A stretch of DNA of 64,000 nt from Patescibacteria group bacterium (GTDB lineage: Bacteria; Patescibacteriota; Patescibacteriia; UBA2196). Of this stretch, positions 6,168 through 59,398 are shown piece after piece (position 1 is the first letter of the stretch; each line of letters begins with the position of its first letter). The stretch is from the NCBI GenBank assembly GCA_028748975.1, contig JAQTPI010000006.1, positions 366 through 64,365 of the forward strand, written 5' to 3'. A program made the position numbers and the translations under genes. The notes below the pieces were generated by a model. It was not told where the DNA came from. It made no database searches and saw only the letters and a program-made list of their open reading frames with translations.

Positions 6168-6512
6168 TTATTCCTTAATTTCCAATCCCCCAATCAACCT
6201 CTCAATTCCTTCCGCCTTTTCTTCCGTGTCATCAATTTCAAAAATCAATTTGGGAATTTTCCTAAAACTTACTCGCCGATTAAGATATTCAATCAGGTCT
6301 TGATGATGAATTTGCAGTGTTTTTAGAGCGGCGCTGGATTTTTCAAAAGGCAAACAAGAAACAAGAATGCGCGCTGACTGTAAATTTTCCGCCACTTTAA
6401 TACCCACCAGCGTGACAAAAATTCCCTCGTCAAATTCTACCACCTGCTTAATCGCCTGGTTTAATTCTTCCAAAAAAATTTGATCCAATTTTTCTTGACG
6501 GTGGTGGCTCAT
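6168..6512 (-). CDS. rbfA: ribosome-binding factor A
   Basis: RbfA-like sequence pattern (R..E.L.....F..V..V.....A.V.V) and conserved position directly downstream of infB. Confidence 0.7.
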   Translation of the reverse strand: MSHHRQEKLDQIFLEELNQAIKQVVEFDEGIFVTLVGIKVAENLQSARILVSCLPFEKSSAALKTLQIHHQDLIEYLNRRVSFRKIPKLIFEIDDTEEKAEGIERLIGGLEIKE

Positions 6513-6652
6513 AAAAACATTTTAGCATCTTAGCATTAAAGCATAAAAGCATTAAAGCAAAACTCAATTAATAAAATTCGAGAAGCTGTTGCGACTATTG
6601 CGATTTCGTCGTGCGAGCTTAGCGGAGCATTGAGCGGATGATACTGCTTGCG

Positions 6653-6869
6653 CCTGCCGCCTTAAAAAAGTTTTGGTATAAAAGCGAGCTGAGTCGGAAC
6701 GGTTTTCTGCCGCAGCAGAAAAAATTTTGCTTCTGTCTGACGCAGTTCCGCCGAAGTCCTTAGAGGACGAGGCGGAACAAGGAGTTAACAAAATTAGTGA
6801 CGACGAGGTCGCTTTTGTCAAAACTTTTTTACAGCGGCGATTTTGGCGCCACCTTTATAAAAAGGTGGC
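6653..6869. repeat. structured ~215-bp intergenic element, copy 1 (downstream of infB, upstream of rbfA)
   Basis: About 93% identical to 60825-61038. The differences are compensatory within two hairpins. Terminal hairpin GCCACCTTT-ATAAA-AAGGTGGC. Confidence 0.7.
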
Positions 6870-6876
6870 AAGAAAA

Positions 6877-8880
6877 CTATTTCTCTTCCACCACATAAAA
6901 TTCCAAAATATCCCCCTCTTTAATCACATTCGTCCCTTCCACTGAAATTCCGCATTCTTCCCCCTCTACTACCTCCTTCATATTTTCCTTGCCGCACTGA
7001 ATACGCAGTGCTTTGCCTTTAGCCACCACTGTTTCGCCGTGCACCACATTAATTTCCGCCGCCGGTATGGCCTTGCCTTCCCAGATTTTAACTCCCACCA
7101 ACTGTGCTTTCTTTTCCGTGCGGAAAATTTTAATCACTCGGCCCTTGCCCAAACTCTTTACCACGCTCTCGGTTTTCGTCAATGCTTTTACTTTTTCCGC
7201 CACAAAATCCAACAGTTCATAAATAATTGGTGAAATTTTTACCTCCACGCCCAAATTGGCGGCCATGGTCTCGGCCTCCGGCATAATTTTATTATGAAAA
7301 CCAATCACGTCCGCGCCCAAATTTTTGGCCTGTTCAATATCGCCTTCATTAATATTTCCCAGTCCTTGCTTCACTACTTTAATTTTTACTCCTTTGTTTT
7401 CCAGTTTGGTCAGCGCTTCCAAAATTGCTTCCACTGACCCCAAAACATCCGCCTTCAAAACCAAATTAACATTGGCGCCTGTTTCTTTTTCTTCGCCGTT
7501 TTCATCTTTATTCACGCTTCGGGTGTTAACTTCTTCTCTTTTCATTAAACGATGTTTGTTTTGGTCAGTCATTTTCAAAAGCTGACGAATTTCTTTTTTA
7601 TCGCTGACTTCTGAAAGAATATCGCCGACCAGCGGCACCGCTTTCAGCCCCAAAATTCTAACTGGCATGGAGGGCGTGGCCTTCTCCACCTCTGCGCCAT
7701 GCCAATTTTTTAGTGCTCTAATTTTGCTTACTGACTGGCCGATTTTAACCACGTCGCCGCGGTTTAAAGTTCCGGTTTGCACAATACAAGTGGCCACCGG
7801 CCCCAAACCCTTGTCCAGACGCGCCTCAATAATCGTGCCGACTGCCGCCCGGTTGGGATTGCCCTGAATTTTTTCTTTTTCCATTTCATAGACCAAGATC
7901 AAGGTGTCCAAAAGACCGTCAATATTTATTTTTTCTTTAGCCGAAATTTCCACGCAAATCGTCTTACCGCCCCAATCTTCCGGCGCCACGCCCATCTCGG
8001 ACAGTGCTGTTTTAATTTTATCCACGTTGGCATCCGGCTTATCAATTTTATTAATCGCCACCACAAACGGCAAACCAGCCGAACGAATTAATGACAGCGC
8101 TTCAATAGTCTGCGGTTGCACGCCATCATCAGCCGCCACCACCAAAATTGCCAAATCCGCTACCGCTGCCCCGCGCGAACGCATGGCCGAAAAAGCTTCA
8201 TGGCCCGGCGTGTCAATGAAAGTTATCTGTTGCCCATTTTTAACGACTTGGTAGGCGCCAATATGCTGGGTAATGCCCCCGGCTTCGCCCGAGACCACAT
8301 CAGTGGAGCGAATGGCATCCAAAAGTTTTGTCTTGCCATGGTCCACGTGTCCCATCACCACCACGACTGGCGGCCGCGGCGACAAATTTTTGGCCTCGTC
8401 GCCGAAAATTTTTGTTCGTTCTTCTTTTTCTTTTTCCCAATCAACCTTTTCTCCGCCCGCCTCTTTTTTCACTTCAAAACCAAAATCAGCGGCAATCAAA
8501 AGCGCGGTTTCAAAATCCACCCGTTCATTAATGGAAGCCATCACTCCGTTTTTCATTAATTGTAAAATCAAGCGTGTCACCGGCACATTCAACTTAATGG
8601 CCAGTTCTTTCACGGTAATGGTGTCGCCCACCTCCACAATTCTGCTTTGTCCCGCCAAGAGTGGCGTCGTCATCTCTTTAACTGTTTTTAATTTCTGTCC
8701 GCCCTCGCCCAAAAACTTCTCGCGCACGCGCGGATCCTGAAATTTATGGAAAATATCCCGCGCCACCCGGTCGTCAACTTTAATCGCTTTTTTGCCAATG
8801 TCAAAACCAAGCTGCGGCAGAATTTCCAATAGCTTCGTGGTCGGCACTTTGACTTGGCGTGAAAGTTCGGTGACGTTCAT
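6877..8880 (-). CDS. infB: translation initiation factor IF-2
   Basis: N-terminal IF2_N, GTPase domain with VVVMGHVDHGKTKLLD, DTPGHEAF, NKID, and a C-terminal beta-barrel domain. 667 aa. Confidence 0.95.
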   Translation of the reverse strand: MNVTELSRQVKVPTTKLLEILPQLGFDIGKKAIKVDDRVARDIFHKFQDPRVREKFLGEGGQKLKTVKEMTTPLLAGQSRIVEVGDTITVKELAIKLNVPVTRLILQLMKNGVMASINERVDFETALLIAADFGFEVKKEAGGEKVDWEKEKEERTKIFGDEAKNLSPRPPVVVVMGHVDHGKTKLLDAIRSTDVVSGEAGGITQHIGAYQVVKNGQQITFIDTPGHEAFSAMRSRGAAVADLAILVVAADDGVQPQTIEALSLIRSAGLPFVVAINKIDKPDANVDKIKTALSEMGVAPEDWGGKTICVEISAKEKINIDGLLDTLILVYEMEKEKIQGNPNRAAVGTIIEARLDKGLGPVATCIVQTGTLNRGDVVKIGQSVSKIRALKNWHGAEVEKATPSMPVRILGLKAVPLVGDILSEVSDKKEIRQLLKMTDQNKHRLMKREEVNTRSVNKDENGEEKETGANVNLVLKADVLGSVEAILEALTKLENKGVKIKVVKQGLGNINEGDIEQAKNLGADVIGFHNKIMPEAETMAANLGVEVKISPIIYELLDFVAEKVKALTKTESVVKSLGKGRVIKIFRTEKKAQLVGVKIWEGKAIPAAEINVVHGETVVAKGKALRIQCGKENMKEVVEGEECGISVEGTNVIKEGDILEFYVVEEK

Positions 8881-10405: not shown

Positions 10406-12586
10406 TTATTCGTTTTCTATCAAAATTTGATTGCTCTGCTCGCGCCACTGTGTCGCCGGAATAGTCGGATGTACTGTTTGTTTGCCATTCTTTGCCAAAT
10501 CAAATATCTCTTGCGGGGTATAACCGCCATAAATGAAAGCATTAACCACCGCGCCCCAGGAAGTATTTTTCAAGGTTAAAATCTTACCGCCATTCAGCGC
10601 TTTCAGTTCATCTCTTAAAACTATAGCTGCGTTCTCTTCAGTTTTCAAATCACCCAGTCGCGACAAACCGTAAATTTTATTCTTATTAGTGGAAATTTTC
10701 TTGGCTTCCGGCGAGAGCGGACTATAACCGCTTTTAATTTCCGTCAAATCATCAAAGCCGTCGCCATCAGTGTCTTCTTTGTTTAGATCCGTGCCATAAA
10801 GTCCTTCTTGAAAATCAGTCAGGCCATCGCCATCAGTATCAAGTTTGTAATCAACCGCTACTGTTGTTGGTGTTGATGTTTGTGTTGGTGTTGATGTTTG
10901 TGAACCAAGGCTTGGTTTAGTGCCCGAACATAAACTGTCTGCCACCACGCTGCCATTATTGTCTTGGCATCTGACTGCCCAAGAATAAGTGGTATTGGCA
11001 CTGGTACAGCTCTGGCTCGTTGTCGGCTTGGTGTCGAAACATAAACTGTCAGCCGCCGCGGCGCCGGTATTATCTTTGCAAGACACGCTTCTTGTTTGCG
11101 TACTATTGGTGCAAGTTGACCACGCACCCGAAGACCAGGAATAAGTCGTTGTGGTGGTGGTTGAACAACTTTGATTGGTTGTTGGTTTAATGCCGGAGCA
11201 TAAACTGTCAGCCACTGTGGCACTATTTTTATCTTTACAAACCACAGTTCTGGTTTGTGTGTTACTAGAACAGGTTGACCAATCACCCGAGGTCCAAGTA
11301 TAAGTAATTCCAACACCCAAAGTTGATCCTGCCACCCAACTTGTCCAATCAGAGCAACCATTAGAATTGCAGGCTTGAACTTTGGCGCTGTAAGAACGAT
11401 TGGAACTTAAAGGATTAAATGGCGCGCCATAATTAGCTGTGTTAAAAGAAGCGCCAGTTACTTTTTGGGCATCACCTACGCCATCTACTTGGACATAATA
11501 ATATGTGGCACTGCTGACTGCGTCCCAACTCCAAGTAAGGGAAGTGCTGGTTGAACCGGTAGATTTAAAATTGGTGGGTTTATCTGGTTTTGTTGCCCAA
11601 GTCGTCCCGGCCACCCAACTTGTCCAATCAGAACAACCATTAGAATTGCAGGCTTGAACTTTGGCGCTGTAAGAACGATTGGAACTTAAAGGATTAAATG
11701 GCGCGCCATAATTAGCTGTGTTAAAAGAAGCGCCAGTTACTTTTTGGGCATCACCTACGCCATCTACTTGGACATAATAATATGTGGCACTGCTGACTGC
11801 GTCCCAACTCCAAGTAAGGGAAGTGCTGGTTGAATCTGTGGTTTTCAAATTTGTAGGAGATGTAGGAATACTCTCTATTCTTGTCACTTGTTTCACATAT
11901 GAACTGTAAGCAGAACAACCGCCGGTGTTGCAGGCCCTGACTTTTGCCTGATAGTCTGTGTTTGGTTGTAATCCAGAAAAAGTAGCGGATTTAATGGAAG
12001 AAATATTGTCTTCGGTAATTTTTTGTGTTTCATCAAAACCGCCATAAAAAGGCCGGTCCTTAACAACCTCATAATACGTCGCGCCGGACTGCGCGCTCCA
12101 CACCCATTTGATGGAAGTGCTGGTATACTCATCTACTTTCAAATCCGTGGGAGTGGTAGGAGGAGTGGGCGTGGTTACCACTGGCGTTGCTGCCGCTGGC
12201 GTCTGGGCTATATCTGAACTGGCCGAAAAAACAGAACAAATGGCATTGCAAGCTTTAACCCTAGCTATGTATGCTGTATTCGGCTTTAAACCTTTAAATT
12301 CATAAGATGTGACTTTTATATCATTAGCATACAGTGTTTCTGAACCACCAACAGAATATTCCCCAAGATAAACTTCATATCTGCTCGCGCTGGCCACCAC
12401 ATTCCAAGTAAAAGAAATTGAAGTTTCTTTAATTGATTGTGGTTGTATTTGTGGCTTCCCTGGCGCTAGGGGCATAATAATTGCTTTAGCCGAATTTGCC
12501 AACAAAAAAAGCTGACCCGAAGCCAAAGCCAGCGTAAGAGCAAATATCAAAAGACCTTTAAAATTCTTTTGCGCGCGTTTTTTCAT
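10406..12586 (-). CDS. secreted surface protein with fibronectin type III-like repeats, Cys-rich modules and calcium-binding DxDxDG repeats
   Basis: Signal peptide MKKRAQKNFKGLLIFALTLALASG. Repeated ~93-aa FN3-like units, two of them identical. Repeated TWTSGDWSTCS...TQTRTVVCKD modules. DTDGDGLTDFQEG and DTDGDGFDDLTEI thrombospondin-type-3-like Ca-binding motifs. Confidence 0.7.
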   Translation of the reverse strand: MKKRAQKNFKGLLIFALTLALASGQLFLLANSAKAIIMPLAPGKPQIQPQSIKETSISFTWNVVASASRYEVYLGEYSVGGSETLYANDIKVTSYEFKGLKPNTAYIARVKACNAICSVFSASSDIAQTPAAATPVVTTPTPPTTPTDLKVDEYTSTSIKWVWSAQSGATYYEVVKDRPFYGGFDETQKITEDNISSIKSATFSGLQPNTDYQAKVRACNTGGCSAYSSYVKQVTRIESIPTSPTNLKTTDSTSTSLTWSWDAVSSATYYYVQVDGVGDAQKVTGASFNTANYGAPFNPLSSNRSYSAKVQACNSNGCSDWTSWVAGTTWATKPDKPTNFKSTGSTSTSLTWSWDAVSSATYYYVQVDGVGDAQKVTGASFNTANYGAPFNPLSSNRSYSAKVQACNSNGCSDWTSWVAGSTLGVGITYTWTSGDWSTCSSNTQTRTVVCKDKNSATVADSLCSGIKPTTNQSCSTTTTTTYSWSSGAWSTCTNSTQTRSVSCKDNTGAAAADSLCFDTKPTTSQSCTSANTTYSWAVRCQDNNGSVVADSLCSGTKPSLGSQTSTPTQTSTPTTVAVDYKLDTDGDGLTDFQEGLYGTDLNKEDTDGDGFDDLTEIKSGYSPLSPEAKKISTNKNKIYGLSRLGDLKTEENAAIVLRDELKALNGGKILTLKNTSWGAVVNAFIYGGYTPQEIFDLAKNGKQTVHPTIPATQWREQSNQILIENE
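11325..11850. repeat. near-perfect tandem duplication (2 x 279 bp) inside the FN3 surface-protein gene
   Basis: Segments about 11332-11565 and 11611-11844 are identical except for 1-2 nt. They encode a duplicated 93-aa unit. Confidence 0.85.
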
Positions 12587-13076: not shown

Positions 13077-13769
13077 TTACCAATTTTTTTTCACCAACCC
13101 CTTTTCCGCCGCGTCCATCTGCGCTTCTTGTTTGGAAGTGCCCTCGCCTTTAGCCACCAATTCTTCTTCCAGATAAACTCCGATGATAAATTTCTTGTTA
13201 TGATCCGGGCCGGATTCAGAAATCACCTGATATGACGGCGTCACCCCGACTTTGTCTTGCGCCATTTCCTGAAAACGCGACTTGGCGTCAATATAAAGTT
13301 TATGTTTCAAAATATCCGGCAATTTCACCAAAATATTTTTGATAATAAATTTTTTAGCGGTATCCCAACCCAAATCCAAATAAATCGCGCCGATCACCGC
13401 TTCCATGGCGTTGGCAATAATGTAACCGCGCGCTTTCTGATTTTTATCTTTGGCTTCGCCGCGCGACAAAAATAAAAAATCATCCAATTCCAGTTCCTTG
13501 CCGATTTCCGAAAGCATCTTGGCGTTGACCAAAGCCGCCCGCCAGTTTGTCATCTCACCCTCGGGATTATTAGGATAATTTTCATATAAATTTTCCGTCA
13601 CGATTAATTCCAAGACCGCGTCGCCCAAAAATTCCAGCCGTTCATTGTGTTCCATTTTTAAAGACGGGTGCTCGTTCAAATATGACCGGTGCGTCAGCGC
13701 CTGTTTCAAAAGTTCCGGATGTTTAAAATTAACTTTTAAAATTTCTTCCAATTTGGAAATGTCTTTCAT
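13077..13769 (-). CDS. rnc: ribonuclease III
   Basis: RNase III signature ERLEFLGDAVLELIVTENLY plus a C-terminal dsRBD. 230 aa. Confidence 0.9.
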   Translation of the reverse strand: MKDISKLEEILKVNFKHPELLKQALTHRSYLNEHPSLKMEHNERLEFLGDAVLELIVTENLYENYPNNPEGEMTNWRAALVNAKMLSEIGKELELDDFLFLSRGEAKDKNQKARGYIIANAMEAVIGAIYLDLGWDTAKKFIIKNILVKLPDILKHKLYIDAKSRFQEMAQDKVGVTPSYQVISESGPDHNKKFIIGVYLEEELVAKGEGTSKQEAQMDAAEKGLVKKNW

Positions 13770-14771: not shown

Positions 14772-14814
14772 ATTTTTGTTAATTTCCAAATTCCAATTTC
14801 CAATTTCCAAACAA

Positions 14815-14847
14815 TCGGTTTTTGCCAAAGGCAAAAACCGAACTTCG
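14815..14847. repeat. palindrome CGGTTTTTGCC-AAA-GGCAAAAACCG, flanked by (AATTTCC/T)n inverted tracts
   Basis: Identical cores at 20880-20908 (upstream of recA) and 26878-26906 (upstream of ssb). Confidence 0.6.
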
Positions 14848-20143: not shown

Positions 20144-20818
20144 ATGGCTCCCTTCCATCTCAAAAAAATCCAACCCCAAAGTGACACCGGCCGCCTGCTT
20201 AAACTTCAAAGAGAGCGGCTGGGTTTGTCTTTGGAAACAATCTCACGCCAGCTGCAAATCAATAAAAACTATCTGGAAGCCATTGAAGAAAGCGCCTGGT
20301 ACAATTTGCCCGGCGAATTCTATGTCACCACTTTTACCAAAAAATATGCCCTGGCCTTGGATTTAAAATGGGAAAAGCTCAAAAAAAATTTCGAAGCCGA
20401 AATAAAATCAACGCGCGGTTTGCTTCGCGATAAAAATTTAAACGCTCCCTCAAAAAAAATCAGCAGCCTGATTCTGCCTCGGCTCATCCGCAAATTTATT
20501 ATTTTTTTAATCGTTCTGTCTCTGCTAACTTATCTTGGGACACAAATCTGGCGCGTAACCGCTCCGCCCAAATTGGTTGTTTTAAATCCAATGGAAGAAC
20601 GCTCTATTCAAAACTCTCCGACCTTAACCATTACCGGCCAGACCGACCCCAAAGCCAAAATCAAAATCAATTCTCTGGAAGTTTCCCCCGATGACACCGG
20701 CTATTTTTCCGCCACTCTTGACTTATCCTACGACTTAAATATAATAAAGGTAGAAGCCAAGAAAAAATATTCCCGCAGCACTATCATAACGAGGAATGTG
20801 GTGTATAATAAAAATTAA
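20144..20818 (+). CDS. rodZ: RodZ-like HTH (XRE-type) single-pass membrane protein
   Basis: N-terminal HTH LGLSLETISRQLQINKNYLEAIEE, central TM helix FIIFLIVLSLLTYLG, and a C-terminal periplasmic domain. Confidence 0.55.
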   Translation: MAPFHLKKIQPQSDTGRLLKLQRERLGLSLETISRQLQINKNYLEAIEESAWYNLPGEFYVTTFTKKYALALDLKWEKLKKNFEAEIKSTRGLLRDKNLNAPSKKISSLILPRLIRKFIIFLIVLSLLTYLGTQIWRVTAPPKLVVLNPMEERSIQNSPTLTITGQTDPKAKIKINSLEVSPDDTGYFSATLDLSYDLNIIKVEAKKKYSRSTIITRNVVYNKN

Positions 20819-20877
20819 TTTCTAATTTCTAATTTCTAATTTTTAAACGATTTTTAATGACTTAATTTCTAATGACC

Positions 20878-20910
20878 GAGGTTCGGTTTTTGCCTCTGGC
20901 AAAAACCGAC
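20878..20910. repeat. same palindrome core, ~35 nt upstream of recA
   Basis: GGTTCGGTTTTTGCCTCTGGCAAAAACCGAC. Confidence 0.6.
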
Positions 20911-20944
20911 ATATTAGAAATTAAAAATTAAAAATTTTACTTTT

Positions 20945-22003
20945 ATGTCCAAAGAACAAGATCCCAAAGATGAAAAAACTACTGCCACCAACACCGCCGT
21001 GGAAGCCATTCGTGAAAAATTCGGCGATGGCGCCATCATGAAATTTGGCGAAGCCAAAAATATGGTAGTGGATGTCATCCCCACCGGCTGCCTGTCCATT
21101 GACATCGCCCTTGGCATCGGCGGCGTTCCGCGCGGCCGCGTCATTGAAATTTACGGCTCGGAATCTTCCGGCAAAACCACGCTCGCCCAGCACATCATTT
21201 GCGAAGTCCAGCGCCTTGGCGGCACCGCCGCTTTTGTGGACGCCGAACACGCGCTTGACCCCGAATACGCCAAAAAAATCGGCGTCAACATTAATGAGCT
21301 TTTAATTTCCCAGCCCGACTCTGGCGAACAGGCCCTGGATATTGTGGAAACACTGGTCCGCTCCAACAGCATGGATGTGATTGTGATTGACTCGGTGGCC
21401 GCCTTGACCCCGCGCGCGGAAATTGAAGGCGAAATGGGCGATTCGCACATGGCGCTTCAGGCGCGCCTGATGAGCCAGGCACTCCGCAAACTCACCGCCA
21501 TCATTTCTAAAACAAAAACCTGCGTCATTTTTATCAATCAAACTCGCCAAAAAATCGGCGTCTTCTTTGGCAATCCCGAAACCACCACCGGCGGCATGGC
21601 TTTAAAATTTTACGCCTCCGTCCGCATTGAATTGAAGCGTGCCGCGCAGATTAAGATGGGTGAAGTCACTGTTGGCAATCGCGTCAAAGCCAAAATAGTC
21701 AAAAACAAAGTCGCCGCCCCTTTCAAATCCGCCGAATTTGACATCATGTATAATGAGGGAATTTCTCTGCCCGGCGATGTTTTGGATTTGGGTATGCTTC
21801 ATGGGCTTATTAAAAAAGTCGGCACGACTTTTTCCTACGGTGAAATGAAACTTGGCGTCGGCCGCGAAACCGCCAAAAACTTTTTAAGGCAAGATAAAAA
21901 ATTAATGAAAGAAATCAGTAAGCAAATCTGGCACGCGGTCAAAGAACTGGAAAAATCCGGCAAACTTGTTTCCGCCGTTGACGAAGGCGCGGGCGAGGAA
22001 TAA
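20945..22003 (+). CDS. recA: recombinase RecA
   Basis: Classic RecA sequence: [18 protein letters not shown] Walker A and loops L1/L2. 352 aa. Bidirectional terminator at 22021-22056. Confidence 0.95.
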
Positions 22004-26820: not shown

Positions 26821-26875
26821 AAATTTAATTTCTAATTCCTAATTACCAATTTCTAATGAAATGCCAAATGTTAAA

Positions 26876-26908
26876 TGTCCAAAATTCGGTTTTTGCCAAA
26901 GGCAAAAA
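26876..26908. repeat. same palindrome core, between rpsF and ssb
   Basis: TTCGGTTTTTGCCAAAGGCAAAAACCGAC. Confidence 0.6.
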
Positions 26909-26945
26909 CCGACAGATTGGAAATTAGAAATTGAAAATTGGAAAT

Positions 26946-27389
26946 TTAATTACTCACTTCTTCCCCCAAAATTTCATCCAGCTTCTTATCCAAATCCTCC
27001 ATGCTCATTTTTTTTGCTTCCGCGTGGGTAGTTGTTTTATATTCTTCTGTAGTAGTCGCCGTCTCTTTTTTAAAAATTGATCGGCGTGGTGACGCCACTG
27101 GCGCGCGTTTGGGTTTAGAAACTTGATAACGGACAACTTCTGATATTAATTTCAGCTTTTTTTCCAAATCCAAAACCATCGCGGGATTCATTTCCAGATA
27201 AAAATTCAAATAAATCCCGTTTCTGATTTTTTTAATGGCATAGGCCAGCCGTTTATGCGACGGTTCGTCAGCTCTTTTAATTTCTCCGCCTAAGCCCTTA
27301 ATTGTTTCGCCAATTTTAACACCCGCTTCTTTCACCAAATCTTCGCTCAAAGTGCCGGGTAAAATCACGCTTAGTTCGTAATTGGTCAT
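26946..27389 (-). CDS. rpsF: 30S ribosomal protein S6 (with C-terminal extension)
   Basis: S6-like N-terminal domain. Conserved rpsF-ssb-rpsR gene order. Confidence 0.85.
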   Translation of the reverse strand: MTNYELSVILPGTLSEDLVKEAGVKIGETIKGLGGEIKRADEPSHKRLAYAIKKIRNGIYLNFYLEMNPAMVLDLEKKLKLISEVVRYQVSKPKRAPVASPRRSIFKKETATTTEEYKTTTHAEAKKMSMEDLDKKLDEILGEEVSN

Positions 27390-31474: not shown

Positions 31475-33445
31475 TTATTTTTTTGCCTTTTCTACAATTG
31501 GCCAGTTATCAATATGCTGGCCCATGGGATCGTTATAATTCGCCGATTCCAAAAAAACAATGCACATAATCAATAATGGCATGAAATCAAAACGGGCAAT
31601 CAATTGCGGTAAAACTTCTTCCATCTCGGCGCCCAGACAGGCATGGCCATCCTCAAATACGTGGGGAGCATTGTGTCCGCCTATCTTTTGCGTCAAATTA
31701 AAAAATCTGATTTGGTTGCAATCGCCATTAAGCGGAATAACAATCCGGAAAGCGCCAATCAAGTGTATTTGGTCTTTTCTCGGATGTTTGCAGAATAAAA
31801 TATCAGTATCCACTATTAACTGGTTTTTGATGCAGCTGACTTTTCTTATCTTTTCCAATTGCCGCATTTTTTCAAAATCAATGGCAAATTGCTTCCGGTA
31901 AACTCCGCCATCCTTCTTCTTGCCATCCGCCACCTCTTTTAAGGCATCGTATTTTCTAATCGCGGTCACCAGTTGGATTTGCAAACTGTTTACCCGGTTG
32001 GCCACTTCCGTCAATTCTTCCTTGGCGTCCTTAATAATTGACTCTTTATTTTGCAGACAAGTGTTGGCGTAGGCCTGTCCTTGTGCTGTCCGCATCTTGG
32101 CTTCCTGTTTTTGTCTTTCCGCTGTTGTGCTTGTTAAAAGACTGGCCACGGCTTGCATCAACTTTTTAAAAATCTTTTTATATTCTTCGTCCGCTCCCAA
32201 AATAGGGAAGGGAATATAAAGATTTCTGCCCGCTATGATTTGTCCGGCCTCTTGGCCGTCCTCATCATATATTATTTTCCCTTCGTTGGTAATCTGAAAA
32301 GATCCGCTTTTGGTTGGCAGAGGAATTCTCCAAAGCTGTTTGGGTGTTAAAAACCCCTGTCTGATGCTTTCCGTTGGCGCGGCAAAAAAATAAATATGAA
32401 ACATGTTGTCATAGCGCGGCAGGTCTCTCATCCGAAACTCGCCTCCGCCGTTATGCAAACAGATGCTCCGCCTAATCTTTGTCATTAATTCCCGGCTGAT
32501 GATGGGCGCGTAAACACGCCTGACTAATTCCAGCTCTCTGCTGTTAAAACCCCCAGAATCAATTACCATCGACCTGTCTATCTCTATGCCCTCCAGTTTT
32601 TTGGAGTCTTTCTTTTTTTCCGGTTCCACTGCTTTAACTGGCCGCCGAAACCTTTTCAGTTGGGAAAAAACTTCCGGCGCCACCACCGCTTCCAGAATTT
32701 TTCTAAAAATAGTAAGTTCTGACTCGCGGCCATAATGACACAGGTCGTGAAAAATATAAAGAGTGTTTTCGCCCACCAGCTCGGCCACCGCATATCTTTT
32801 GTCTCTAATCACTATGCCTTGGCCGCTGGGTGCGAAAGATTCATCATCACAAGCCACCCTTGTTCCCCAAATCTTCTCAGGTGTCTGGGTTTCCGTGTCA
32901 CCGCTTTCTGACGGGGCCGACCAAATGCGGATATGGAAAACATCGCCTTCAGCCGGGCTGGTATGTTTTCGATGCGGCACGCTGATGACAATTTCTGTTC
33001 CAATTTTTGGTAAAAGAATTTCTTTGGCTAATTTACGAAATCGGCTGCTGCCCTCGCCGTTCCAATCTTTGATTTTCACCTGGCAATCAGCGCCTCTGTC
33101 TTTTTTTGAATTATCAAAAATTACTCTTTGTATGATTCTTTTTTGTTCCTTGGTGATGGCCGAAGTGTTTTTCCACCATTTTAAATCATCGCCCTTGGCA
33201 TATTCCGGATCCAAACCGGTTATCTCCGCAATCTCCAGTTTAAAAACTCCGGTGATCTCGGTTGGTAATTCTGCCAAACTCATTTTTTTTAGGGCTCTTA
33301 ATCCCTGGCTTAACTGTGTTTCGTCCAAAACAATGCCTTTTTTACTGCCCATCTCAAAGTCGGCAAAAATGACCTTTTGGGCATTTAAAGCCGCTTTTTT
33401 ACTCTCGTCAATAGCTGGCAAAAAATAATTTCTCACCACTTCCAT
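31475..33445 (-). CDS. large paralog 1 (656 aa): internal duplicated domain, coiled coil, C-terminal UBC/E2-like domain with putative catalytic Cys (GHACLG)
   Basis: RBS AAGGAGG. C-terminal FRIVIPLNGD...IRFFNLTQKIGGHNAPHVFEDGHACLG...LLIMCIVFLESANYNDP aligns with the UBC-fold pattern F.L.I.FP.DYP...HPN...G.ICLDIL...LLSICSLL.DPNPDDP. Confidence 0.6.
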   Translation of the reverse strand: MEVVRNYFLPAIDESKKAALNAQKVIFADFEMGSKKGIVLDETQLSQGLRALKKMSLAELPTEITGVFKLEIAEITGLDPEYAKGDDLKWWKNTSAITKEQKRIIQRVIFDNSKKDRGADCQVKIKDWNGEGSSRFRKLAKEILLPKIGTEIVISVPHRKHTSPAEGDVFHIRIWSAPSESGDTETQTPEKIWGTRVACDDESFAPSGQGIVIRDKRYAVAELVGENTLYIFHDLCHYGRESELTIFRKILEAVVAPEVFSQLKRFRRPVKAVEPEKKKDSKKLEGIEIDRSMVIDSGGFNSRELELVRRVYAPIISRELMTKIRRSICLHNGGGEFRMRDLPRYDNMFHIYFFAAPTESIRQGFLTPKQLWRIPLPTKSGSFQITNEGKIIYDEDGQEAGQIIAGRNLYIPFPILGADEEYKKIFKKLMQAVASLLTSTTAERQKQEAKMRTAQGQAYANTCLQNKESIIKDAKEELTEVANRVNSLQIQLVTAIRKYDALKEVADGKKKDGGVYRKQFAIDFEKMRQLEKIRKVSCIKNQLIVDTDILFCKHPRKDQIHLIGAFRIVIPLNGDCNQIRFFNLTQKIGGHNAPHVFEDGHACLGAEMEEVLPQLIARFDFMPLLIMCIVFLESANYNDPMGQHIDNWPIVEKAKK

Positions 33446-33464
33446 GCTTCTTCCTCCTTTTAAG

Positions 33465-33541
33465 CTGGGTTTTTAAGGTTCATCTTCACTGTTTTTAGTG
33501 AATAGCTAACCTTAGCAAAACTAAAAAACCTTGTCAAGTAA
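33465..33541 (-). promoter_or_regulatory. promoter/leader module of paralog 1
   Basis: Minus strand: cTTGACA-N17-TAAGGT, hairpin TTCACT-N6-AGTGAA, GAACCTTAAAAACC box, AAGGAGG, ATG. Confidence 0.55.
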
Positions 33542-33601
33542 TAAAATAAATAAAAAACGGTCTGCTTTGCCAGCAGGCCGTTATCTTGAAAACATTTATT
33601 T

Positions 33602-35563
33602 TTATTTTTGTTCCGTAACTATTGGCCAGTCCGCCACCCGCTCTCCGGCGCTCGCCTGGCCCTCTGCCGTTTCCAGAAAAATAAGACACATGGTTATCAA
33701 TGGTCCAAAATCAAACCGGGCGATTAATTGCGGTAAGATTTCTTGCAGCTGGCTGCCAAAGTAAGCCTGGCCATCCGGCGCCACGTTGGGAGCATTAAAT
33801 TCGTTAACCCGCCGTGTCAGATTAAAAAATCTGATATCCTCGCAATTGCCCCAAAAAGGGATAAAAATCTGGAAAGCGCCAATCAGGCGTGTTTCTTTTT
33901 TGCTGTAGAAAAGAGTGTTGGTCTCCACTATAAGACAATCCGGGGTGAAAGTAATCTGCCTTATCTTTTCCAGTCGCCCCATTTTCTCAAAATCAGCGCT
34001 AAACTTCTCTTGGTCGCCACCCTTTCTTTTGCCCTCGGTTGCTTCCTTCAGCGCATCATGCTTTCTGATGGCCGCTATCAACTGTGTTTGAAAATTTTTG
34101 ATTTGCCTGGTAATATCCACAAACTCAGCCGCGGCATCTTTCTTGATCAAATCTTTATACTGCCAACAAATGGCGGCATAAGCTTTTCCTTTGGCTGCCC
34201 GCATTTCTTCTTCCCACTGCTGCCTTTCCGCTGCCGTACTGGTAAAAAGCCTGGCCACTTCTGCCATTAAACAGGTAAAAATCCGTTGCAATGTTTTTTG
34301 GTCGGAAAATAAAAAAAATGGAATATAAAGATTTCGGCCGCCGATAATTTGCCCGACTCTTTGTCCAGCATCATCATAAACCATTACCCCTTCCCTGGTA
34401 ATCGGGCAAGGGTTATTCCCGGCCGGCAAACTAATGCCCCATAATTTATTTGATGAAGAAAATTGTCTGCCCGCCATTGAATTGGTAAAAAATATATGAA
34501 ACACCTCGTCATAAAAAGGTAATGGCTGTTGTCTTATGCTCCTATTTTTATGCAGGCAAACGCCGCGCTTAATTTTTGCCATTAATTCCCGCGCGATAAT
34601 TGGAGCATAAACTTTTCTAGCCAAAGCGCATTCTTCTGAGCTAAACCCCGGTAATTCCATCGTCAGTGTTTTATTTATATCTATTTTTTTGCTTTCCAAT
34701 TCTTTTGATTTTGTTTCTTTTTTTACTGGAGCTGGCCGCCGAAACCTTTTCAGTTGGGAAAAAACTTCCGGCGCCACCACCGCTTCCAGAATTTTTCTAA
34801 AAATAGTAAGTTCTGACTCGCGGCCATAATGACACAGGTCGTGAAAAATATAAAGGGTGTTTTCGCCCACCAGCTCGGCCACTGCGTAGTTGTTTGTCTT
34901 GTCTTTAATAACTAGGCCAAGGCCGCTCGCTGGAAAAGATGCGTCACCGCAAGCCACTTCTGTTCCCCAGATAGTTGGGGGTGTGCGAACCTCTCTGGAT
35001 CCGCTCTTCAATGGTGCCGACCAGATGTAGATATAAAAATTATCATCTGCAACCGGTTCTTTTTGGTCTCCATGTGGCACGCTGATAAAAATGTTTGTTT
35101 TAATTCTGGGCCAAAGAATTTCTTCGGCTAGCTGGCAATAATCTTCGCTGTTACTGCGTCCGTCCCAATGATCAACTGTCACAAAACCCGACCCATCCTC
35201 CTCTTCTATTGTTTCTTCTTTTTTCAAACTCTCACCAATCTTTTCCTGTAAAAATCTCCGTTGCTCTGCCGCCAGGGTGTAGCTATTTTTGCACCACCTC
35301 AAATCATCGCCTTGGGCATATTCCGGATCCGCCCCTGTGATGTCAATGGTCAAAAGCTTGAAAGCTCCCTCAATCCCGGTGGACAGTTCCGCCAAGATTG
35401 CTTTGTTTAAAGCTCTCAATCCCTGAAGTAATTGGGTTTCGTCCAAAATAATGCCCTGTTCGCCTCCCAGTTCAAAATCGGCAAAAATGACCTTGTGGGC
35501 GTTTAAAGCTGTTTTTTGTGCCGCATTGACAGCTGCTAAAAAATAGCTTCTGACAACTTCCAT
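33602..35563 (-). CDS. large paralog 2 (653 aa): same architecture, E2-like active-site Cys/His replaced (DGQAYFG)
   Basis: 52-aa block identical to paralog 1. C-terminal domain is present but lacks the Cys and the NYNDP motif. Confidence 0.6.
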   Translation of the reverse strand: MEVVRSYFLAAVNAAQKTALNAHKVIFADFELGGEQGIILDETQLLQGLRALNKAILAELSTGIEGAFKLLTIDITGADPEYAQGDDLRWCKNSYTLAAEQRRFLQEKIGESLKKEETIEEEDGSGFVTVDHWDGRSNSEDYCQLAEEILWPRIKTNIFISVPHGDQKEPVADDNFYIYIWSAPLKSGSREVRTPPTIWGTEVACGDASFPASGLGLVIKDKTNNYAVAELVGENTLYIFHDLCHYGRESELTIFRKILEAVVAPEVFSQLKRFRRPAPVKKETKSKELESKKIDINKTLTMELPGFSSEECALARKVYAPIIARELMAKIKRGVCLHKNRSIRQQPLPFYDEVFHIFFTNSMAGRQFSSSNKLWGISLPAGNNPCPITREGVMVYDDAGQRVGQIIGGRNLYIPFFLFSDQKTLQRIFTCLMAEVARLFTSTAAERQQWEEEMRAAKGKAYAAICWQYKDLIKKDAAAEFVDITRQIKNFQTQLIAAIRKHDALKEATEGKRKGGDQEKFSADFEKMGRLEKIRQITFTPDCLIVETNTLFYSKKETRLIGAFQIFIPFWGNCEDIRFFNLTRRVNEFNAPNVAPDGQAYFGSQLQEILPQLIARFDFGPLITMCLIFLETAEGQASAGERVADWPIVTEQK

Positions 35564-35584
35564 GTTTCTGCCTCCTTTTCCATT

Positions 35585-35660
35585 AAATTTTTAAGGTCTG
35601 TTTGCTTCACTCTACTGGTGAATATTTCAGCTTAGCAAAACTTATCCCGCCTGTCAAGTT
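35585..35660 (-). promoter_or_regulatory. promoter/leader module of paralog 2
   Basis: TTGACA-N17-TAAGCT, hairpin TTCAC...GTGAA, CAGACCTTAAAAATT box, AAGGAGG. Confidence 0.55.
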
Positions 35661-35795
35661 TATTTTCTAAATAAAAATATAACAAAAAATAAAAAAACGG
35701 TCCAATAATTCGCCAGTTAGCGAATCGGACCGTTTGTTGAATTTTGAATTTTTATTATTTTTCGCTCAGTTTAAATATTTAAATCCAGACGAATC

Positions 35796-37790
35796 TTAGC
35801 TGGTTTTGCGTTTTCCTTTGTCCGCTTCCTCTTGTCCTGTTTTTACCAGCGGCCATTGATCAACATGTCTGCCGATATCATCAAGGTTCGCTGATTCCAA
35901 AAAAATAATGCACATAATAACAATTGACGTGAAATCAAAACGAGCCATCAGCTCTGGTATAATTTCATGCATCTCCCTGCCCAGACAGGCATGGCCGTCA
36001 GCATATACGTGGGGAGCGTTCATTCGGCTGTCATGCGCATTAATCAGCTGTGTCAAGTTAAAAAATCTGAGATCATTGCAGCTGCCCTTAAAAGGAATAA
36101 CGATCTGAAAAGCGCCGATCAGGCGTATTTCTTTATTAGTAGGGTGCTGGTAATAAAGAATATCAGTCTCCACAATCAGGTGGGTCTTGGTGAAAGAAGC
36201 CCATCTTATCTTGTCCAGTTGCCCTATTTTCTCAAATTCAGCGGCAAATCTCTCTTGATATAATTCTTTGCCCTCCTTTTTGTCCTCAACTACTCCTCTT
36301 AAAATATCCTGCCTTCTGTTGGCCGCTACCAATTGCGTTTGCAGATTTTTTATTTGGCTACCAGTCTCAGTCAGTTCCTGGCCGGCAGTTTCTTTTTTAA
36401 TTTTGGCAAGAATCGCCTCTTTGTAGTTTTGGCAAACACGAGCATAAGTTATTTTTTGAATTGCCATCAGCCCGGCTTCCCGCTGCTGCCTTTCGGCCGC
36501 CGTGCTCTTTAAAAGCCAGTTTACTTCTTCCAATAAACGAATAAAAAACTCTTTGTTTTCTTTGGTCTCAAAAGTTAAATAAAAAGGAAGGTAGAGATTG
36601 TTGCCATTAATGAGCCAAGCCACGACTTGGCCTTGGTTGTCATAAATCGCCCTTCCCTTGTTTAAGATCACTAGGGAGTTCTTGGGGTTATCCAATTTTA
36701 TGTTGATTCCCCAAGGCGTCGGTGGACTCAATGGCGCGTTTTTAATTGCCAGTCCCGGCGAGGCTCCCAAAAAAACATGGAACATATTATCATAAAAAGG
36801 CTGAGTTTTTTTGCCAAATTCCCCGCCATGTAAACACACGTTTCTTTTAATGACTGGGGTCAGCACCTGTTTAACTATCTTGGCTGCTTCTCCGTAAAGT
36901 CTTTCAAAAAAAATTCGTGAAGAAAAATCATTTGCGCCAGCTATGAAAACTTCTTGATCCAACCAATCAGCTGGTTTTTTTTCTTTTTCTTTCACTGCCA
37001 AGGCCTCAATAATAGCCATGGTTCTGGCGATTCCCTCTTCAAATATTCTTAACTCGTTTTCATCCCCGTTGTGGCTACAAATATCATGATGAAAATACAA
37101 ATTATTCATGCCGATTAATTCGGCTACCGCGTAGCCCGTGGCTTCATCCACCAGCGAAACTCCCAGACCACTGTCCACCGTACCAATACCACGATCTGAC
37201 ACTTCAATTCCCCAAATACTCTCCGGGGGACTCTTTGTGTTATGGCTTCCGCAACTGGGAGCGGCATGAAGGTGGATATAAAAATCCGAACCCAAAATCG
37301 GATCTGTCCAACCAGATTGTTTATGGATCTGGACCTTCTTTTTTATTTTTGGAGTTATGTTCTTCATTGCCAGCCGGGTAAAAGAATTGTCATCCGGCCA
37401 TTTCCGCCAATCTTGCCGAGCCGCCTTAATCCAATTTATTTCTCCTTCTCGCTCTTGTTCCGGCGGACATAAATAATTAAATAATAATTCCTTTGCCGCC
37501 TCCGGAATCTTCAAAATATTTTTGTACCAGTTCAATTCCTCTCCGGCTTCATAACCAGCATCGGGTTCCATCGGAACTAACAGAGTTTGATAAACTCCTC
37601 TCGCCCCAGTTGGTTGTTCCCAAAGTATGGCTTTTCGCAGCCGCAGTAAACAATGTTTAATTTGTGTCTCCTCAACCAAAATTTTTTGTCCATCTCCTGG
37701 TGTGACTCTGGAAAATTTCACGCCCTGCTGGGTTAAAAATGCCTCTTCCTCTCTGGTTACCATTAAAAGGAATTTTTTTGGTTCTTCCAT
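35796..37790 (-). CDS. large paralog 3 (664 aa): divergent member with intact E2-like motif NAPHVYADGHACLG...FLESANLDD
   Basis: Colinear with paralogs 1 and 2 at about 35-40% identity outside the conversion tract. Same promoter/leader module upstream. Confidence 0.6.
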   Translation of the reverse strand: MEEPKKFLLMVTREEEAFLTQQGVKFSRVTPGDGQKILVEETQIKHCLLRLRKAILWEQPTGARGVYQTLLVPMEPDAGYEAGEELNWYKNILKIPEAAKELLFNYLCPPEQEREGEINWIKAARQDWRKWPDDNSFTRLAMKNITPKIKKKVQIHKQSGWTDPILGSDFYIHLHAAPSCGSHNTKSPPESIWGIEVSDRGIGTVDSGLGVSLVDEATGYAVAELIGMNNLYFHHDICSHNGDENELRIFEEGIARTMAIIEALAVKEKEKKPADWLDQEVFIAGANDFSSRIFFERLYGEAAKIVKQVLTPVIKRNVCLHGGEFGKKTQPFYDNMFHVFLGASPGLAIKNAPLSPPTPWGINIKLDNPKNSLVILNKGRAIYDNQGQVVAWLINGNNLYLPFYLTFETKENKEFFIRLLEEVNWLLKSTAAERQQREAGLMAIQKITYARVCQNYKEAILAKIKKETAGQELTETGSQIKNLQTQLVAANRRQDILRGVVEDKKEGKELYQERFAAEFEKIGQLDKIRWASFTKTHLIVETDILYYQHPTNKEIRLIGAFQIVIPFKGSCNDLRFFNLTQLINAHDSRMNAPHVYADGHACLGREMHEIIPELMARFDFTSIVIMCIIFLESANLDDIGRHVDQWPLVKTGQEEADKGKRKTS

Positions 37791-40716: not shown

Positions 40717-40730
40717 ATTATTCTTTTTGT

Positions 40731-40983
40731 GTCATCCTGAGCGAAGGTCCGATGGACATCGGACCGGAGTCGAAGGATCTCGTTGTTTTATAAAAAAATA
40801 TAAGGATATAGAGATATAAAGATATAAGCGACCAGCCTGTTATATCCTTATTTCCTTATATCTTTATTATTTATCGCTTTGGCCACGGGATTCCCTGCCT
40901 CGCCTGACGCTCGCCTCGATTCGGCGAAGCGGGCGAGTCAAGGCGGGCTTCCTCTCCCGAGTACTCGGGATCGTCAGGATGAC
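40731..40983. mobile_element. complete MITE-like element (~253 bp) with terminal inverted repeats GTCATCCTGAG / CGTCAGGATGAC
   Basis: The two ends are reverse complements. The interior carries the ATATAAGGATATA palindromic sub-repeat and a GCGAAGCGGGCGAG sub-repeat seen elsewhere. Confidence 0.6.
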
Positions 40984-40998
40984 AACTACTTAAAAAGT

Positions 40999-41220: not shown

Positions 41221-41452
41221 AATAAAACTTATAATACTTAGTAACTTGCGATTGCTGCGATTTCGTCGTGCGAGCTTAGCGGAGCGTTAGTTAGAAAATC
41301 GAGGCGAAAGCGCCGTTAAGAAATCAATGGGGACGAACCGCAGGTGAGTCGGGACCCATTGATTTTAGGCGCTAAGCCTGATTTTCTCTAACGCGCAGCT
41401 CGCTCGCCAGTTTCTTTCAGCCACTTTCTTTGTCCAAAGAAAGTGGCATAAA

Positions 41453-41950
41453 TTACTCTCCCTTCACCTTCACCGCGATTGACTTCGCTTTCTGCGCTTT
41501 GGGTAAAATCAAAGTTAAGACGCCATTTTTCAAAATTGCCTGCGCTTCTTCCGCTTTCACTTCCACCGGTAAAACCACCGAGCGGGAAAAATCGCCCCAA
41601 TAACATTCTTGGTAAAAATAATCTTCTTCTTTAATTTCCTCTTCCAAGTGGCGCGACCCACGGACGGTCACCATGTCATTATCAATAGCAATATCAATAT
41701 CTTCCGGTTTCACGCCGGCAATGGTTGATTTGATGATGATATTGTCTGGCGTCTGAAAAACATCCACCGAGAGCTGGCCGTCCGCTCCGCTCCTGTCCAG
41801 CCATTCGCTGTCGCGCAGCCGCGCCGCCGTGGCTTCCGCCAATGGCTCCATTGGCGCCGCCGGTTCATTAATTATCGCTTCCATTTCCAGCGGTTTTTCC
41901 GGCAAATCATAACTTTCATCGTTTTTTATAACCTTGGTAAAAAATGCCAT
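41453..41950 (-). CDS. Hsp20/alpha-crystallin family small heat-shock protein
   Basis: ACD core DVFQTPDNIIIKSTIAGVKPEDIDIAIDNDMVTVRG...GVLTLILPK. Start trimmed to 41950, because the upstream extension lies in a repeat element. Confidence 0.75.
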   Translation of the reverse strand: MAFFTKVIKNDESYDLPEKPLEMEAIINEPAAPMEPLAEATAARLRDSEWLDRSGADGQLSVDVFQTPDNIIIKSTIAGVKPEDIDIAIDNDMVTVRGSRHLEEEIKEEDYFYQECYWGDFSRSVVLPVEVKAEEAQAILKNGVLTLILPKAQKAKSIAVKVKGE

Positions 41951-49612: not shown

Positions 49613-49622
49613 ACTCTTCCTG

Positions 49623-49750
49623 GTGTCATCCTGAGGCCGATATCACATCAGCCGAAGGATCCCCTGCGAACTTGGGGAGGTAGTATTTTTTACGCTTTTC
49701 CCATTTGCCACGGGGTCCTTCGTCCCGAGTAATCGGGACTCAGGACAGGT
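49623..49750. mobile_element. MITE-like element with GTCATCCTGAGG left TIR
   Basis: See 14386-14540. Lies between yraN and yebC. Confidence 0.55.
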
Positions 49751-49760
49751 TGTAAAAAAA

Positions 49761-53246: not shown

Positions 53247-53566
53247 CCCAATAGTTTATCCCGAGCGACCCCGAGTACTTGGGGGAGTCGAGGGATCTCG
53301 TGGTTTGGTAAATTTTATAATAAAGATATAGGGATATAAGGATATATAAAAACAAGAAAAGCCCGCCCGAACGACTGCTGTCGTTCAGTCGGGCGGGCAA
53401 GAAAAAAGTAAAAAACATTTTTGTAAATACCTCACGATCGTGAGGTATTTACAAAATTAAAAATAAAAAAAGTTTGGTTATTTTCGCGGCCGCAATTTTA
53501 ATCAAACTTTTTTAATTTAAAAAAAACAGCCCCAAAGGAATCGTCCTTCGGGGCTTTTTGAAAATT

Positions 53567-59258: not shown

Positions 59259-59398
59259 CACCGCAGTGTCATCCTGAGCAACAGCGAAGGATCTCATTTT
59301 AAATTATAAAGCCGGGCCGACGAATGTCGGCCCGGCCTTTTGTTTTATTTATTATTATTCGGATACATTCGGAAAAAATTCGTACGGTATTCGGGAAG

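Follow-up and report, generated by a model that had tools for sequence, protein, structure and literature searches.

A candidate family of small mobile elements with a conserved, RNA-like fold in Patescibacteria

We analyzed a 64,000-nt stretch of the genome of a Patescibacteria group bacterium (contig JAQTPI010000006.1, positions 366 to 64,365; hereafter, the window), in which a non-coding element occurs in two copies between neighboring housekeeping genes. Copy 1 separates infB (6877-8880) from rbfA (6168-6512), and copy 2 separates dnaN (61049-62149), itself next to dnaA, from a phosphoribosyltransferase/nucleoside-phosphorylase fusion gene (PRTase/PNP; 59399-60805). All of these flanking genes are on the minus strand, which bears out the location directly 3′ of infB and dnaN, upstream of a gene in the same orientation, that a first-pass annotation of the window had assigned to the element. 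BLASTN aligned 6654-6869 with 60825-61038 at 91.6% identity over 226 positions (E = 2.7e-87), i.e. the two copies are present as annotated, albeit at an identity slightly lower than the ~93% given there, and BLASTN of the window returned no third copy. A 35-mer common to both copies occurs exactly twice in the window, as compared to zero occurrences expected from shuffles. Homology extends from CTGCCGCC (6654 and 60825) through a shared terminal hairpin, GCCACCTTT-ATAA-AAAGGTGGC, which was found at 6848-6869 and 61017-61038, with the whole inserted segment being somewhat longer. The paired differences to which the annotation had drawn attention proved exact: TTCTGC-CGCA-GCAGAA in copy 1 corresponds to TTTGAC-CGCA-GTCAAA in copy 2 and, nested in CCGCC...GGCGG, GTCCT-TAG-AGGAC corresponds to GTTG-AGCG-CAAC. 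A further string described as shared, GCCGCTTTTGTC..., is exact in copy 2, but copy 1 has GTCGCTTTTGTC instead, giving a G·U pair. In silico folding of both strands of both copies yielded z-scores of -7.0 to -8.3, with none of 200 shuffles folding as well.

The insert measures ~245 bp in total, with a structured core of 185 nt. Read 5′ to 3′ on the plus strand of the window, it consists of a weakly conserved leader of 10-35 nt, a closing helix, helices P4-P6, a three-way junction, the 3′ arm of the closing helix, a U-tract, a terminal hairpin, and an A-rich tail. The closing helix (P1-P3) comprises 6 + 13 + 9 pairs (~28 bp), and P4, P5, and P6 are set apart by two symmetric internal loops in which GA always lies opposite GA. 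One branch of the three-way junction is the hairpin H1; the other is closed by P7 and carries the conserved CUGUCUGACGCAG and AAGGAGUUAAC together with a two-tier variable hairpin, H3. In each of the eight copies known (see below), the 3′ closing arm is followed by A or C and then by four to six U residues. The terminal hairpin of 9-10 bp precedes an A-rich 7-9-mer, the tail reaching the stop codon of the convergent gene or ending within ~30 nt of it. This hairpin exists in two unrelated versions, GCCACCUUU/AAAGGUGGC in six copies and GGUUCUUUUUU/AAAAAAGAAC in two (L010 and L005), in which an alternative GGTTCTTTTTT...AAAAAAGAAC hairpin takes its place. Outside the hairpin, L010 and L005 share 94% and 65% identity with copy 1, respectively. 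The features of the two window copies are as follows.

6632-6653, plus strand: weakly conserved leader of copy 1 (...GATACTGCTTGCGC); the left flanks of the eight copies read nCGTTCGTGn or TGCGn
6654-6839, plus strand: structured core of copy 1, 185 nt, from CTGCCGCC... to ...ACAGCGGCG; covariance-model score of 216 bits
6654-6682, plus strand: 5′ arm of the closing helix P1-P3, identical in 8/8 copies, pairing with 6814-6839
6688-6700, plus strand: 5′ strand of P4-P6 with the motif GAGTCGGAAC; GA at 6691-6692 and 6697-6698 opposite GA at 6805-6806 and 6799-6800
6703-6722, plus strand: hairpin H1, its 8-bp stem variable and its loop, C(CGCA)G, invariant; five of eight pairs double-changed, 100% of cells paired
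6723-6795, plus strand: P7-closed domain (AAUUUUG.UU with AA.CAAAAUU), containing CUGUCUGACGCAG, H3 (6745-6778), and AAGGAGUUAAC
6814-6839, plus strand: 3′ arm of the closing helix, identical in 8/8 copies, followed by the U-tract at 6841-6844
6840-6876, plus strand: 3′ module of copy 1, comprising AUUUUGGC, the hairpin at 6848-6869, and the tail AAGAAAA; abuts the infB stop codon (6877-6879, minus strand)
60806-60824, plus strand: leader of copy 2, 19 nt, reaching the PRTase/PNP start codon
60825-61008, plus strand: structured core of copy 2; covariance-model score of 208 bits; H1 at 60874-60893, H3 at 60916-60947
61009-61048, plus strand: 3′ module of copy 2, comprising CUUUUGGC, the hairpin at 61017-61038, and an A-rich tail; abuts the dnaN stop codon (61049-61051, minus strand)

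Two copies are too few for covariation analysis, and relatives were therefore sought. A degenerate 20-mer matching both closing-stem arms recovered 23 metagenome loci, six of which (L005, L007, L008, L009, L010, and L013) hold the full element with its arms inverted, the remainder being chance or coding matches. Together with the window, this gives eight copies at seven different loci, with cores 64-94% identical. Searches of all fetched loci with nhmmer and a covariance model found nothing beyond these eight, and neither BLAST of phage and plasmid collections nor three viral scans returned a copy. As far as exact arm matches can show, an arm-pattern scan found the element to be absent from GTDB representative genomes, where a 23-mer from the apparently unpaired center likewise had no match. 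A solo terminal hairpin that could represent a pre-existing insertion target was absent from about 400 kb. Short-read assembly of the source strain gave contigs that break off within the element, as expected of a repeat, and the family explains assembly breaks in these metagenome-assembled genomes. Separately, to the right of the infB-rbfA copy in L008 (1862-1925; equivalent to L037/L038), 21 nt of the terminal hairpin and A-rich tail (CTATAAAAAGGTGGCAAGAAAA) are doubled around a 32-nt insert with a small hairpin (TCTTTGTCTAAAGA), an arrangement that resembles a nested insertion or a recombination scar.

The eight copies indicated extensive covariation. In an unfitted MAFFT alignment, RNAalifold predicted 69 pairs, 23 of them changed on both sides, with 97.3% of cells paired; sliding the 3′ partners by one to three columns left 40-53% of cells paired and one to six double-changed pairs. 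Upon re-alignment with a covariance model built from the hand-checked structure, 32 of 70 pairs were changed on both sides and four on one side only, 98.0% of cells were paired, and slid controls retained two to seven double-changed pairs and 39-50% paired cells. None of 500 shuffles attained the observed values in either alignment. As model-guided alignment leans toward structure, we take the MAFFT figures to be conservative. Double changes affect five of the nine pairs of P7 and all 13 pairs of H3. The strands of P7 lie ~60 nt apart and read AAUUUUG/CAAAAUU in most copies, AGUCCG/CGGACU in L009, and AAUUUCC/GGAAAUU in L005, and P3-P6, which join strands ~120 nt apart, covary as well; the covariation thus reaches beyond local palindromes. 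The fold is maintained by selection, with many compensatory changes, and the folded molecule is most likely RNA. This supports the earlier proposal of stems kept by compensatory change: the six further copies show paired changes, the opposite of the non-compensatory ones named as evidence against it.

Conservation is unevenly distributed along the element. The 55 arm columns show no difference in any of the 28 pairwise comparisons (100% identity), as compared to a mean identity of 69% in the interior, where 73 of 92 paired and 19 of 40 unpaired columns are variable. H1, H3, and terminal-hairpin types assort independently among the copies, indicating recombination between family members. At the infB-rbfA locus, the element is 87% identical between copy 1 and L008, as compared to 78% for rbfA and 54% for its third codon positions, which reflects either a constraint stronger than that on the neighboring essential genes or a more recent renewal of the element.

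A coding role was rejected: open reading frames (ORFs) span the element on both strands (6727-6945 on the plus and 6564-6821 on the minus strand), but the frame is lost to single-base indels in L013 and L005, and the stem substitutions would mean radical amino-acid changes. Membership in a known RNA family, a check suggested by the first-pass annotation, found no support in Rfam 15 either. A scan of the window returned two tRNAs only; 6S, signal recognition particle, HEARO, and IS605-orfB RNAs, self-cleaving ribozymes, and riboswitches were not matched, and permissive scans (E up to 10) of three copies gave a best E of 0.14, scores 20-70 bits under threshold, and no meaningful recurring family. 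Some copies contain a hammerhead-like CUGANGA string, but the essential A9 is C in others. Pairing of the leader with the terminal hairpin, or of the H1 loop with the leader, was likewise discarded, as the sequences are only partly complementary and show no covariation where the alternative hairpin is present.

Watson-Crick covariation does not distinguish the two strands, and asymmetric features were weighed instead. Helix cells on the plus strand comprise 28 G·U as compared to two A·C combinations. Both internal loops are kept as 5′-GA/3′-AG, i.e. the standard tandem sheared G·A motif, while the adjoining pairs covary, and in L013 the middle of P5 itself has turned into GA/AG; on the minus strand these loops read U·C/C·U. 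Unpaired plus-strand positions are purine-rich (A 36%, G 31%, C 21%, U 13%), with balanced paired positions. The plus strand folds 3-12 kcal/mol better in 8/8 copies, and only on this strand is the closing helix followed by a U-run. Taken together, it is quite probable that the plus strand is the one that folds. It is antisense to both neighboring genes in seven of the eight copies, the exception being L013, which lies between ybaB and recR. Two promoter candidates did not withstand comparison. By eye, the 5′ arm contains an extended -10-like TGGTATAAA, but any start it gave would lie downstream of the covarying helix P3; on the minus strand, TTGACA-N17-ACTAAT loses its -10 box in L009 through P7 covariation.

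The element is mobile, as it is present or absent among close relatives and inserts into tiny spacers directly after stop codons. An empty infB-rbfA site with a 7-nt spacer was found in L040 (RbfA 79% identical), and an empty dnaN-PRTase site with a 1-nt spacer in L045 (DnaN 83% identical). Given the single nucleotide in L045, from which 60806-61048 is absent, all 243 nt of the copy 2 spacer, from the leader through the A-rich tail, represent inserted DNA. Strains whose DnaN is 97% or 91% identical have a different sequence after the dnaN stop codon, L041 and L042 harbor unrelated sequence in the infB-rbfA spacer, and relatives with RbfA or DnaN ~65-68% identical had no copy in loci of 12-21 kb (nhmmer, covariance model). 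In the strain with 97% identical DnaN (L051 and L052, 1518-1552), the post-dnaN sequence ATTGGTTTATCCGCCTTCGCCCTTTTCGGTCTCG... is unrelated to the element and runs into the contig end; it may be another repeat at the same site.

In none of the eight copies do direct repeats indicative of target-site duplication border either the core or the whole insert, and duplication of, or insertion at, the TA of the stop codon may be compatible with both filled/empty comparisons. The inverted arms (26-29 nt) are invariant but subterminal, at distances of 10-35 nt and ~37 nt from the two ends of the insert. The four nucleotides preceding the core (GCGC, GTAA, GCGA, ATAA, GTGA, GTAT, GTAG, GTGC) contain no fixed target motif. 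Single-arm matches that might have revealed a parent insertion sequence in the metagenome and genome scans, a limited search space, were all chance or coding. Every copy has housekeeping genes on both sides (rbfA, the PRTase/PNP fusion, recR, ndk, ruvB, and others). Two points had escaped the first-pass annotation: the element is a mobile repeat, and its RNA-type strand is most likely antisense to infB and dnaN.

Transposition via single-stranded DNA on the lagging-strand template was considered and set aside, since an origin at dnaA-dnaN would make the minus strand the lagging template in the window, and the structural signatures are on the other strand. The dnaA-dnaN spacer (62150-62439) is AT-rich (23% GC) and contains several DnaA-box-like TTATCCACA or TGTGGATAA variants that are conserved in L050 and L051; it is the probable oriC, which would place copy 2 ~1.1 kb from the origin.

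Inspection of the terminal hairpin led us to a second family with the same architecture, which is likewise antisense to both neighboring genes. It and the other features that bear on the element are the following.

41225-41455, plus strand: second-family element with a leader, a closing helix of ~30 pairs, a tandem G·A tip, a U-rich tract, and a hairpin
6589-6631, plus strand: second-family fragment (leader and 5′ closing strand), 43 nt, adjoining copy 1 on the left and 91% identical to 41246-41288
13077-13769, minus strand: RNase III gene (Pfam Ribonucleas_3_3, 2.4e-40, plus a dsrm domain)

The GCCAC...GUGGC hairpin of the second family lies 5 nt from the stop codon of the minus-strand hsp20, and its leader (...TTGCGATTGCTGCGATTTCGTCGT) resembles the weak leader motif of the first family. 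Its tip, GAC-GA-ACC-GCA-GGU-GA-GUC, holds the same tandem G·A module as well as the CCGCAG and GAGUCGGRAC strings of the first family, with the GAGTCGGAAC motif of P4-P6 recurring at 41346-41355. The ends and the G·A motif are thus common to both families, and the interior differs. Remnants of the second-family hairpin tip also flank the copies in L008, L009, and L010. The first family is therefore one branch of a wider element set sharing ends and a core motif, and conservation of the G·A module across families supports a role as a recognition site.

We favor, at a probability of roughly 0.55, the reading that both are members of a family, undescribed so far and seen in a narrow Patescibacteria lineage, of small mobile non-coding elements that carry a plus-strand RNA. 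The folded molecule would be RNA read from the plus strand of the window, antisense to the flanking genes, and would constitute a separate small RNA of ~190 nt that is independent of the operon and ends at the closing helix and U-tract. If this end acted as a one-way terminator, sense insertion between essential co-transcribed genes would be polar and mainly antisense insertions would survive, and the 7/8 orientation bias may follow from the proposed terminator working one way only. The invariant closing helix and the purine-rich loops could be where a trans-supplied protein binds, either to mobilize the element or to make use of the RNA. The reality of the family is well supported; function and mechanism we infer from sequence.

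Several observations weigh against this reading. Only eight copies are known, and for 20 of the 55 invariant arm positions the search pattern prescribed the base in one arm or both, with the remaining 35 positions, plus the second arm in every match, being free of it. The minus-strand consensus is nearly the same (60 pairs, 23 compensated), the preference of G·U over A·C comes down to about seven versus two independent sites, i.e. few strand-discriminating substitutions, and on the minus strand the H1 loop becomes C(UGCG)G, which is of the UNCG tetraloop type. Transcription of the minus strand within operons is certain. Plus-strand transcription, as well as RNA rather than single-stranded DNA being the folded form, is deduced from features of the sequence; a consensus scan detected no conserved promoter upstream on the plus strand, the leader being weakly conserved and variable in length. 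With a 'loop' of 170 nt and only four to six U residues, the closing helix and U-tract do not form a standard intrinsic terminator, and they remain uncalled in a terminator scan because of the length of this 'loop'. The terminal hairpin has a U-run before and an A-run after it on both strands, and hence lacks the intrinsic-terminator feature. Finally, comparison of the 38 larger window ORFs with Pfam revealed no transposase, reverse transcriptase, or RNA-guided nuclease domain.

The strand on which RNA is certain wherever the operon is transcribed is the minus strand, i.e. the sense strand of both neighbors in seven of eight copies, and a cis-acting element between two cistrons in the operon mRNA, akin to Correia/NEMIS or ERIC repeats, is the foremost alternative, if a tentative one. 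RNase III would then cut the ~28-bp closing helix, the hairpin would protect the upstream message, and the fold would set the relative stability or expression of the neighboring genes. On the minus strand, the hairpin begins 7-14 nt after the stop codon, or 33-38 nt where an extra hairpin module intervenes. The 23 compensated pairs and the C(UGCG)G loop suit this strand, regulation of this type has precedents in Correia/NEMIS repeats (via RNase III) and in ERIC repeats (via orientation-dependent mRNA stability; PMC2229807), and the genome encodes RNase Y besides RNase III, the latter being a possible processor of the closing helix, as far as can be judged by inference. However, reading the minus strand turns the conserved internal loops into U·C/C·U mismatches and the 28 G·U cells into A·C ones, brings the pyrimidine share of unpaired positions to 67%, and weakens folding by 3-12 kcal/mol. 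A simple RNase III hairpin would not need a conserved three-way junction with invariant loops, and the invariance of the arms in sequence, beyond mere pairing, would be left unexplained. Were the element instead a palindromic MITE (miniature inverted-repeat transposable element) acting at the DNA level only, its stems could be kept without any selection for an RNA fold, by hairpin-templated repair, i.e. template switching in quasi-palindromes, and both arms bound by one transposase. The large excess of double over one-sided changes (32 versus four pairs), whole stems differing at three to six adjacent positions without intermediates, arms invariant in sequence, as protein-binding terminal repeats would be, and the independent assortment of H1, H3, and terminal-hairpin modules, suggestive of DNA recombination, are all in line with this. 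Yet helices with strands 60-120 nt apart (P7, P3-P6) covary and the tandem G·A loops stay mismatched rather than being 'corrected', which makes a DNA-only origin of the paired changes unlikely. Moreover, junction and loop nucleotides are conserved beside varying pairs, the pattern of a functional fold; the element is more conserved than third codon positions of the neighboring essential genes; and its repeats are subterminal, with neither target-site duplication nor a parent insertion sequence found. We consider this explanation very unlikely.

A third alternative casts the element as non-autonomous, carrying a guide or template RNA on behalf of a mobility enzyme whose gene lies elsewhere in the genome, with IscB/TnpB omega-RNA, IS110 bridge RNA, or the template of a reverse transcriptase (short interspersed element-like, with an A-rich 3′ tail) as candidates. 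A structured RNA of ~190 nt that is present in multiple copies and has conserved loops and an invariant helix would fit, as would a 5′ leader variable in sequence and length preceding a constant 3′ end with its A-rich tail, the lack of both target-site duplications and terminal inverted repeats, and a second family combining the same ends and G·A motif with another interior. These points are offset by the absence of IscB, TnpB, IS110, or reverse transcriptase genes from the window and from the vicinity of any copy, by the lack of an Rfam match to HEARO or IS605-orfB RNAs at E up to 10, by variable parts that are stems rather than single-stranded, guide-like loops, and by a local hairpin at one end only and no fixed 4-5-nt target, which differs from IS200/IS605; this explanation appears improbable. 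A broader version, also rather unlikely, would have the element as a mobile gene for a trans-acting RNA, forming the RNA half of an undescribed Patescibacteria mobility or targeting system, with the closing helix and G·A loops as a protein platform. In this version, the molecule could be a guide, bridge, or template RNA with its partner protein encoded elsewhere, and 41225-41455 would be a sister RNA served by the same machinery.

Structured, transcribed mobile repeats with compensated RNA folds are already a known kind, bcr1 being the closest description and Correia/NEMIS and ERIC the best studied functionally. The ~155-bp bcr1 of the Bacillus cereus group is transcribed, keeps a double-stranded RNA fold by compensatory changes, is patchily distributed among close strains, and is flanked by 5-bp direct repeats (PMC3184786). 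The Patescibacteria element resembles it in being a small non-coding mobile repeat with a non-conserved distribution and a compensated fold; it differs in that no duplication is seen, in its three-way junction, tandem G·A loops, invariant arms, and separate terminal hairpin, and in its strong orientation bias after stop codons, its occurrence in another phylum, and the lack of sequence similarity. Correia/NEMIS repeats of Neisseria and ERIC/IRU repeats of enterobacteria are multi-copy, intergenic, 100-160 bp long, carry inverted-repeat arms that form a long RNA hairpin, and are co-transcribed with their neighbors, being linked to RNase III or RNase E effects on mRNA stability (PMC2229807; PMC3184786); for Correia/NEMIS hairpins, a part in the regulation of adjacent transcripts by RNase III has been proposed (PMC2229807). 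These repeats own truly terminal inverted repeats, TA target duplications, and an interior without a conserved multi-branched fold, whereas here the repeats are subterminal, no duplication is demonstrable, and RNA-type features favor the operon-antisense strand. REPs are simple palindromes of 20-40 nt, frequently clustered and linked to RAYT transposases (see PMC2817692 and PMC3116915). Like REP/BIME and REPIN sequences, the present element is a structured repeat after genes in operons; in contrast to those short ones, it is five times longer, multi-branched, and solitary. The omega-RNA/HEARO-type RNAs of IS200/IS605 elements and their ORF-less derivatives are ~200 nt long, structured, and multi-copy, and come without target duplication. 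Being a structured multi-copy RNA carried by a mobile element without target duplication is common ground; the lack of an Rfam match, of IscB/TnpB nearby, of matching subterminal hairpins at both ends, of a fixed target tetranucleotide, and of a variable guide segment sets the present element apart.

By the definition of MITEs in PMC3184786, the element qualifies in being small without a transposase gene (~245-bp insert) and multi-copy with insertion polymorphism (L040 and L045 empty), but not with respect to target-site duplication or a parent insertion sequence with the same ends; as far as testable, two defining MITE features, i.e. target duplication and truly terminal repeats, appear to be lacking. 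With respect to the possibility of a known MITE, raised in the first-pass annotation, the element is mobile and MITE-like, with insertion polymorphism at both loci, yet it matches no known MITE and is structured. Derivation from an IS200/IS605 palindrome is disfavored by the single local hairpin and the lack of a fixed 5′ target, a riboswitch or cis-regulatory leader by the lack of a constant downstream gene class, and a retron by housekeeping neighbors in every copy and no adjacent reverse transcriptase. A literature search retrieved no such element from this phylum. New here are the conserved multi-branched core, the invariant arms, the modular terminal hairpin, and the strict post-stop-codon position.

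Other repeats and duplications were observed in the window. A motif of GAGATCC(T/C)TCG, a short hairpin, and CTCAGGATGACAC (or ...CTCGGGATAAAC) occurs at 40717-40998, 49613-49760, 53490-53566, and 59340-59398, and upstream of dnaN in L050 and L051; immediately preceding several gene starts, it resembles a conserved structure of 5′ untranslated regions or another repeat family. The hairpin CGGTTTTTGCCAAAGGCAAAAACCG, set between inverted runs of AATTTCTAA-type heptamer repeats, is intergenic at 14781-14841, 20817-20945, and 26827-26948, and fills the infB-rbfA spacer of the relative L041 (1-130). On the minus strand, 31475-37790 encodes three tandem paralogs of ~655 aa with blocks 70-98% identical, a spacing of ~2.1 kb, and no Pfam match. 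The gene for a fibronectin-type-III surface protein (726 aa, 10406-12586) contains internal tandem repeats of 262 nt (95% identical; 11317-11857) and ~56 nt (10914-11239).

The genomes of Patescibacteria are tiny and tightly packed, and to our knowledge almost nothing is known of their non-coding RNAs and small mobile elements. Here, a 185-nt fold has covariation support on par with accepted RNA families, and the element carrying it enters 1-7-nt spacers between essential genes without harm to them. If the plus-strand RNA is real, it would represent a new structured RNA class and a rare case of a small-RNA gene spreading as a mobile cassette; a guide or template RNA for an unseen enzyme, which is possible, would be the most interesting outcome. 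If it is the minus strand that is active, the element would be a Candidate Phyla Radiation counterpart of Correia/ERIC-type operon punctuation. Either way, the family offers a clean model for selection on RNA structure inside a mobile element.

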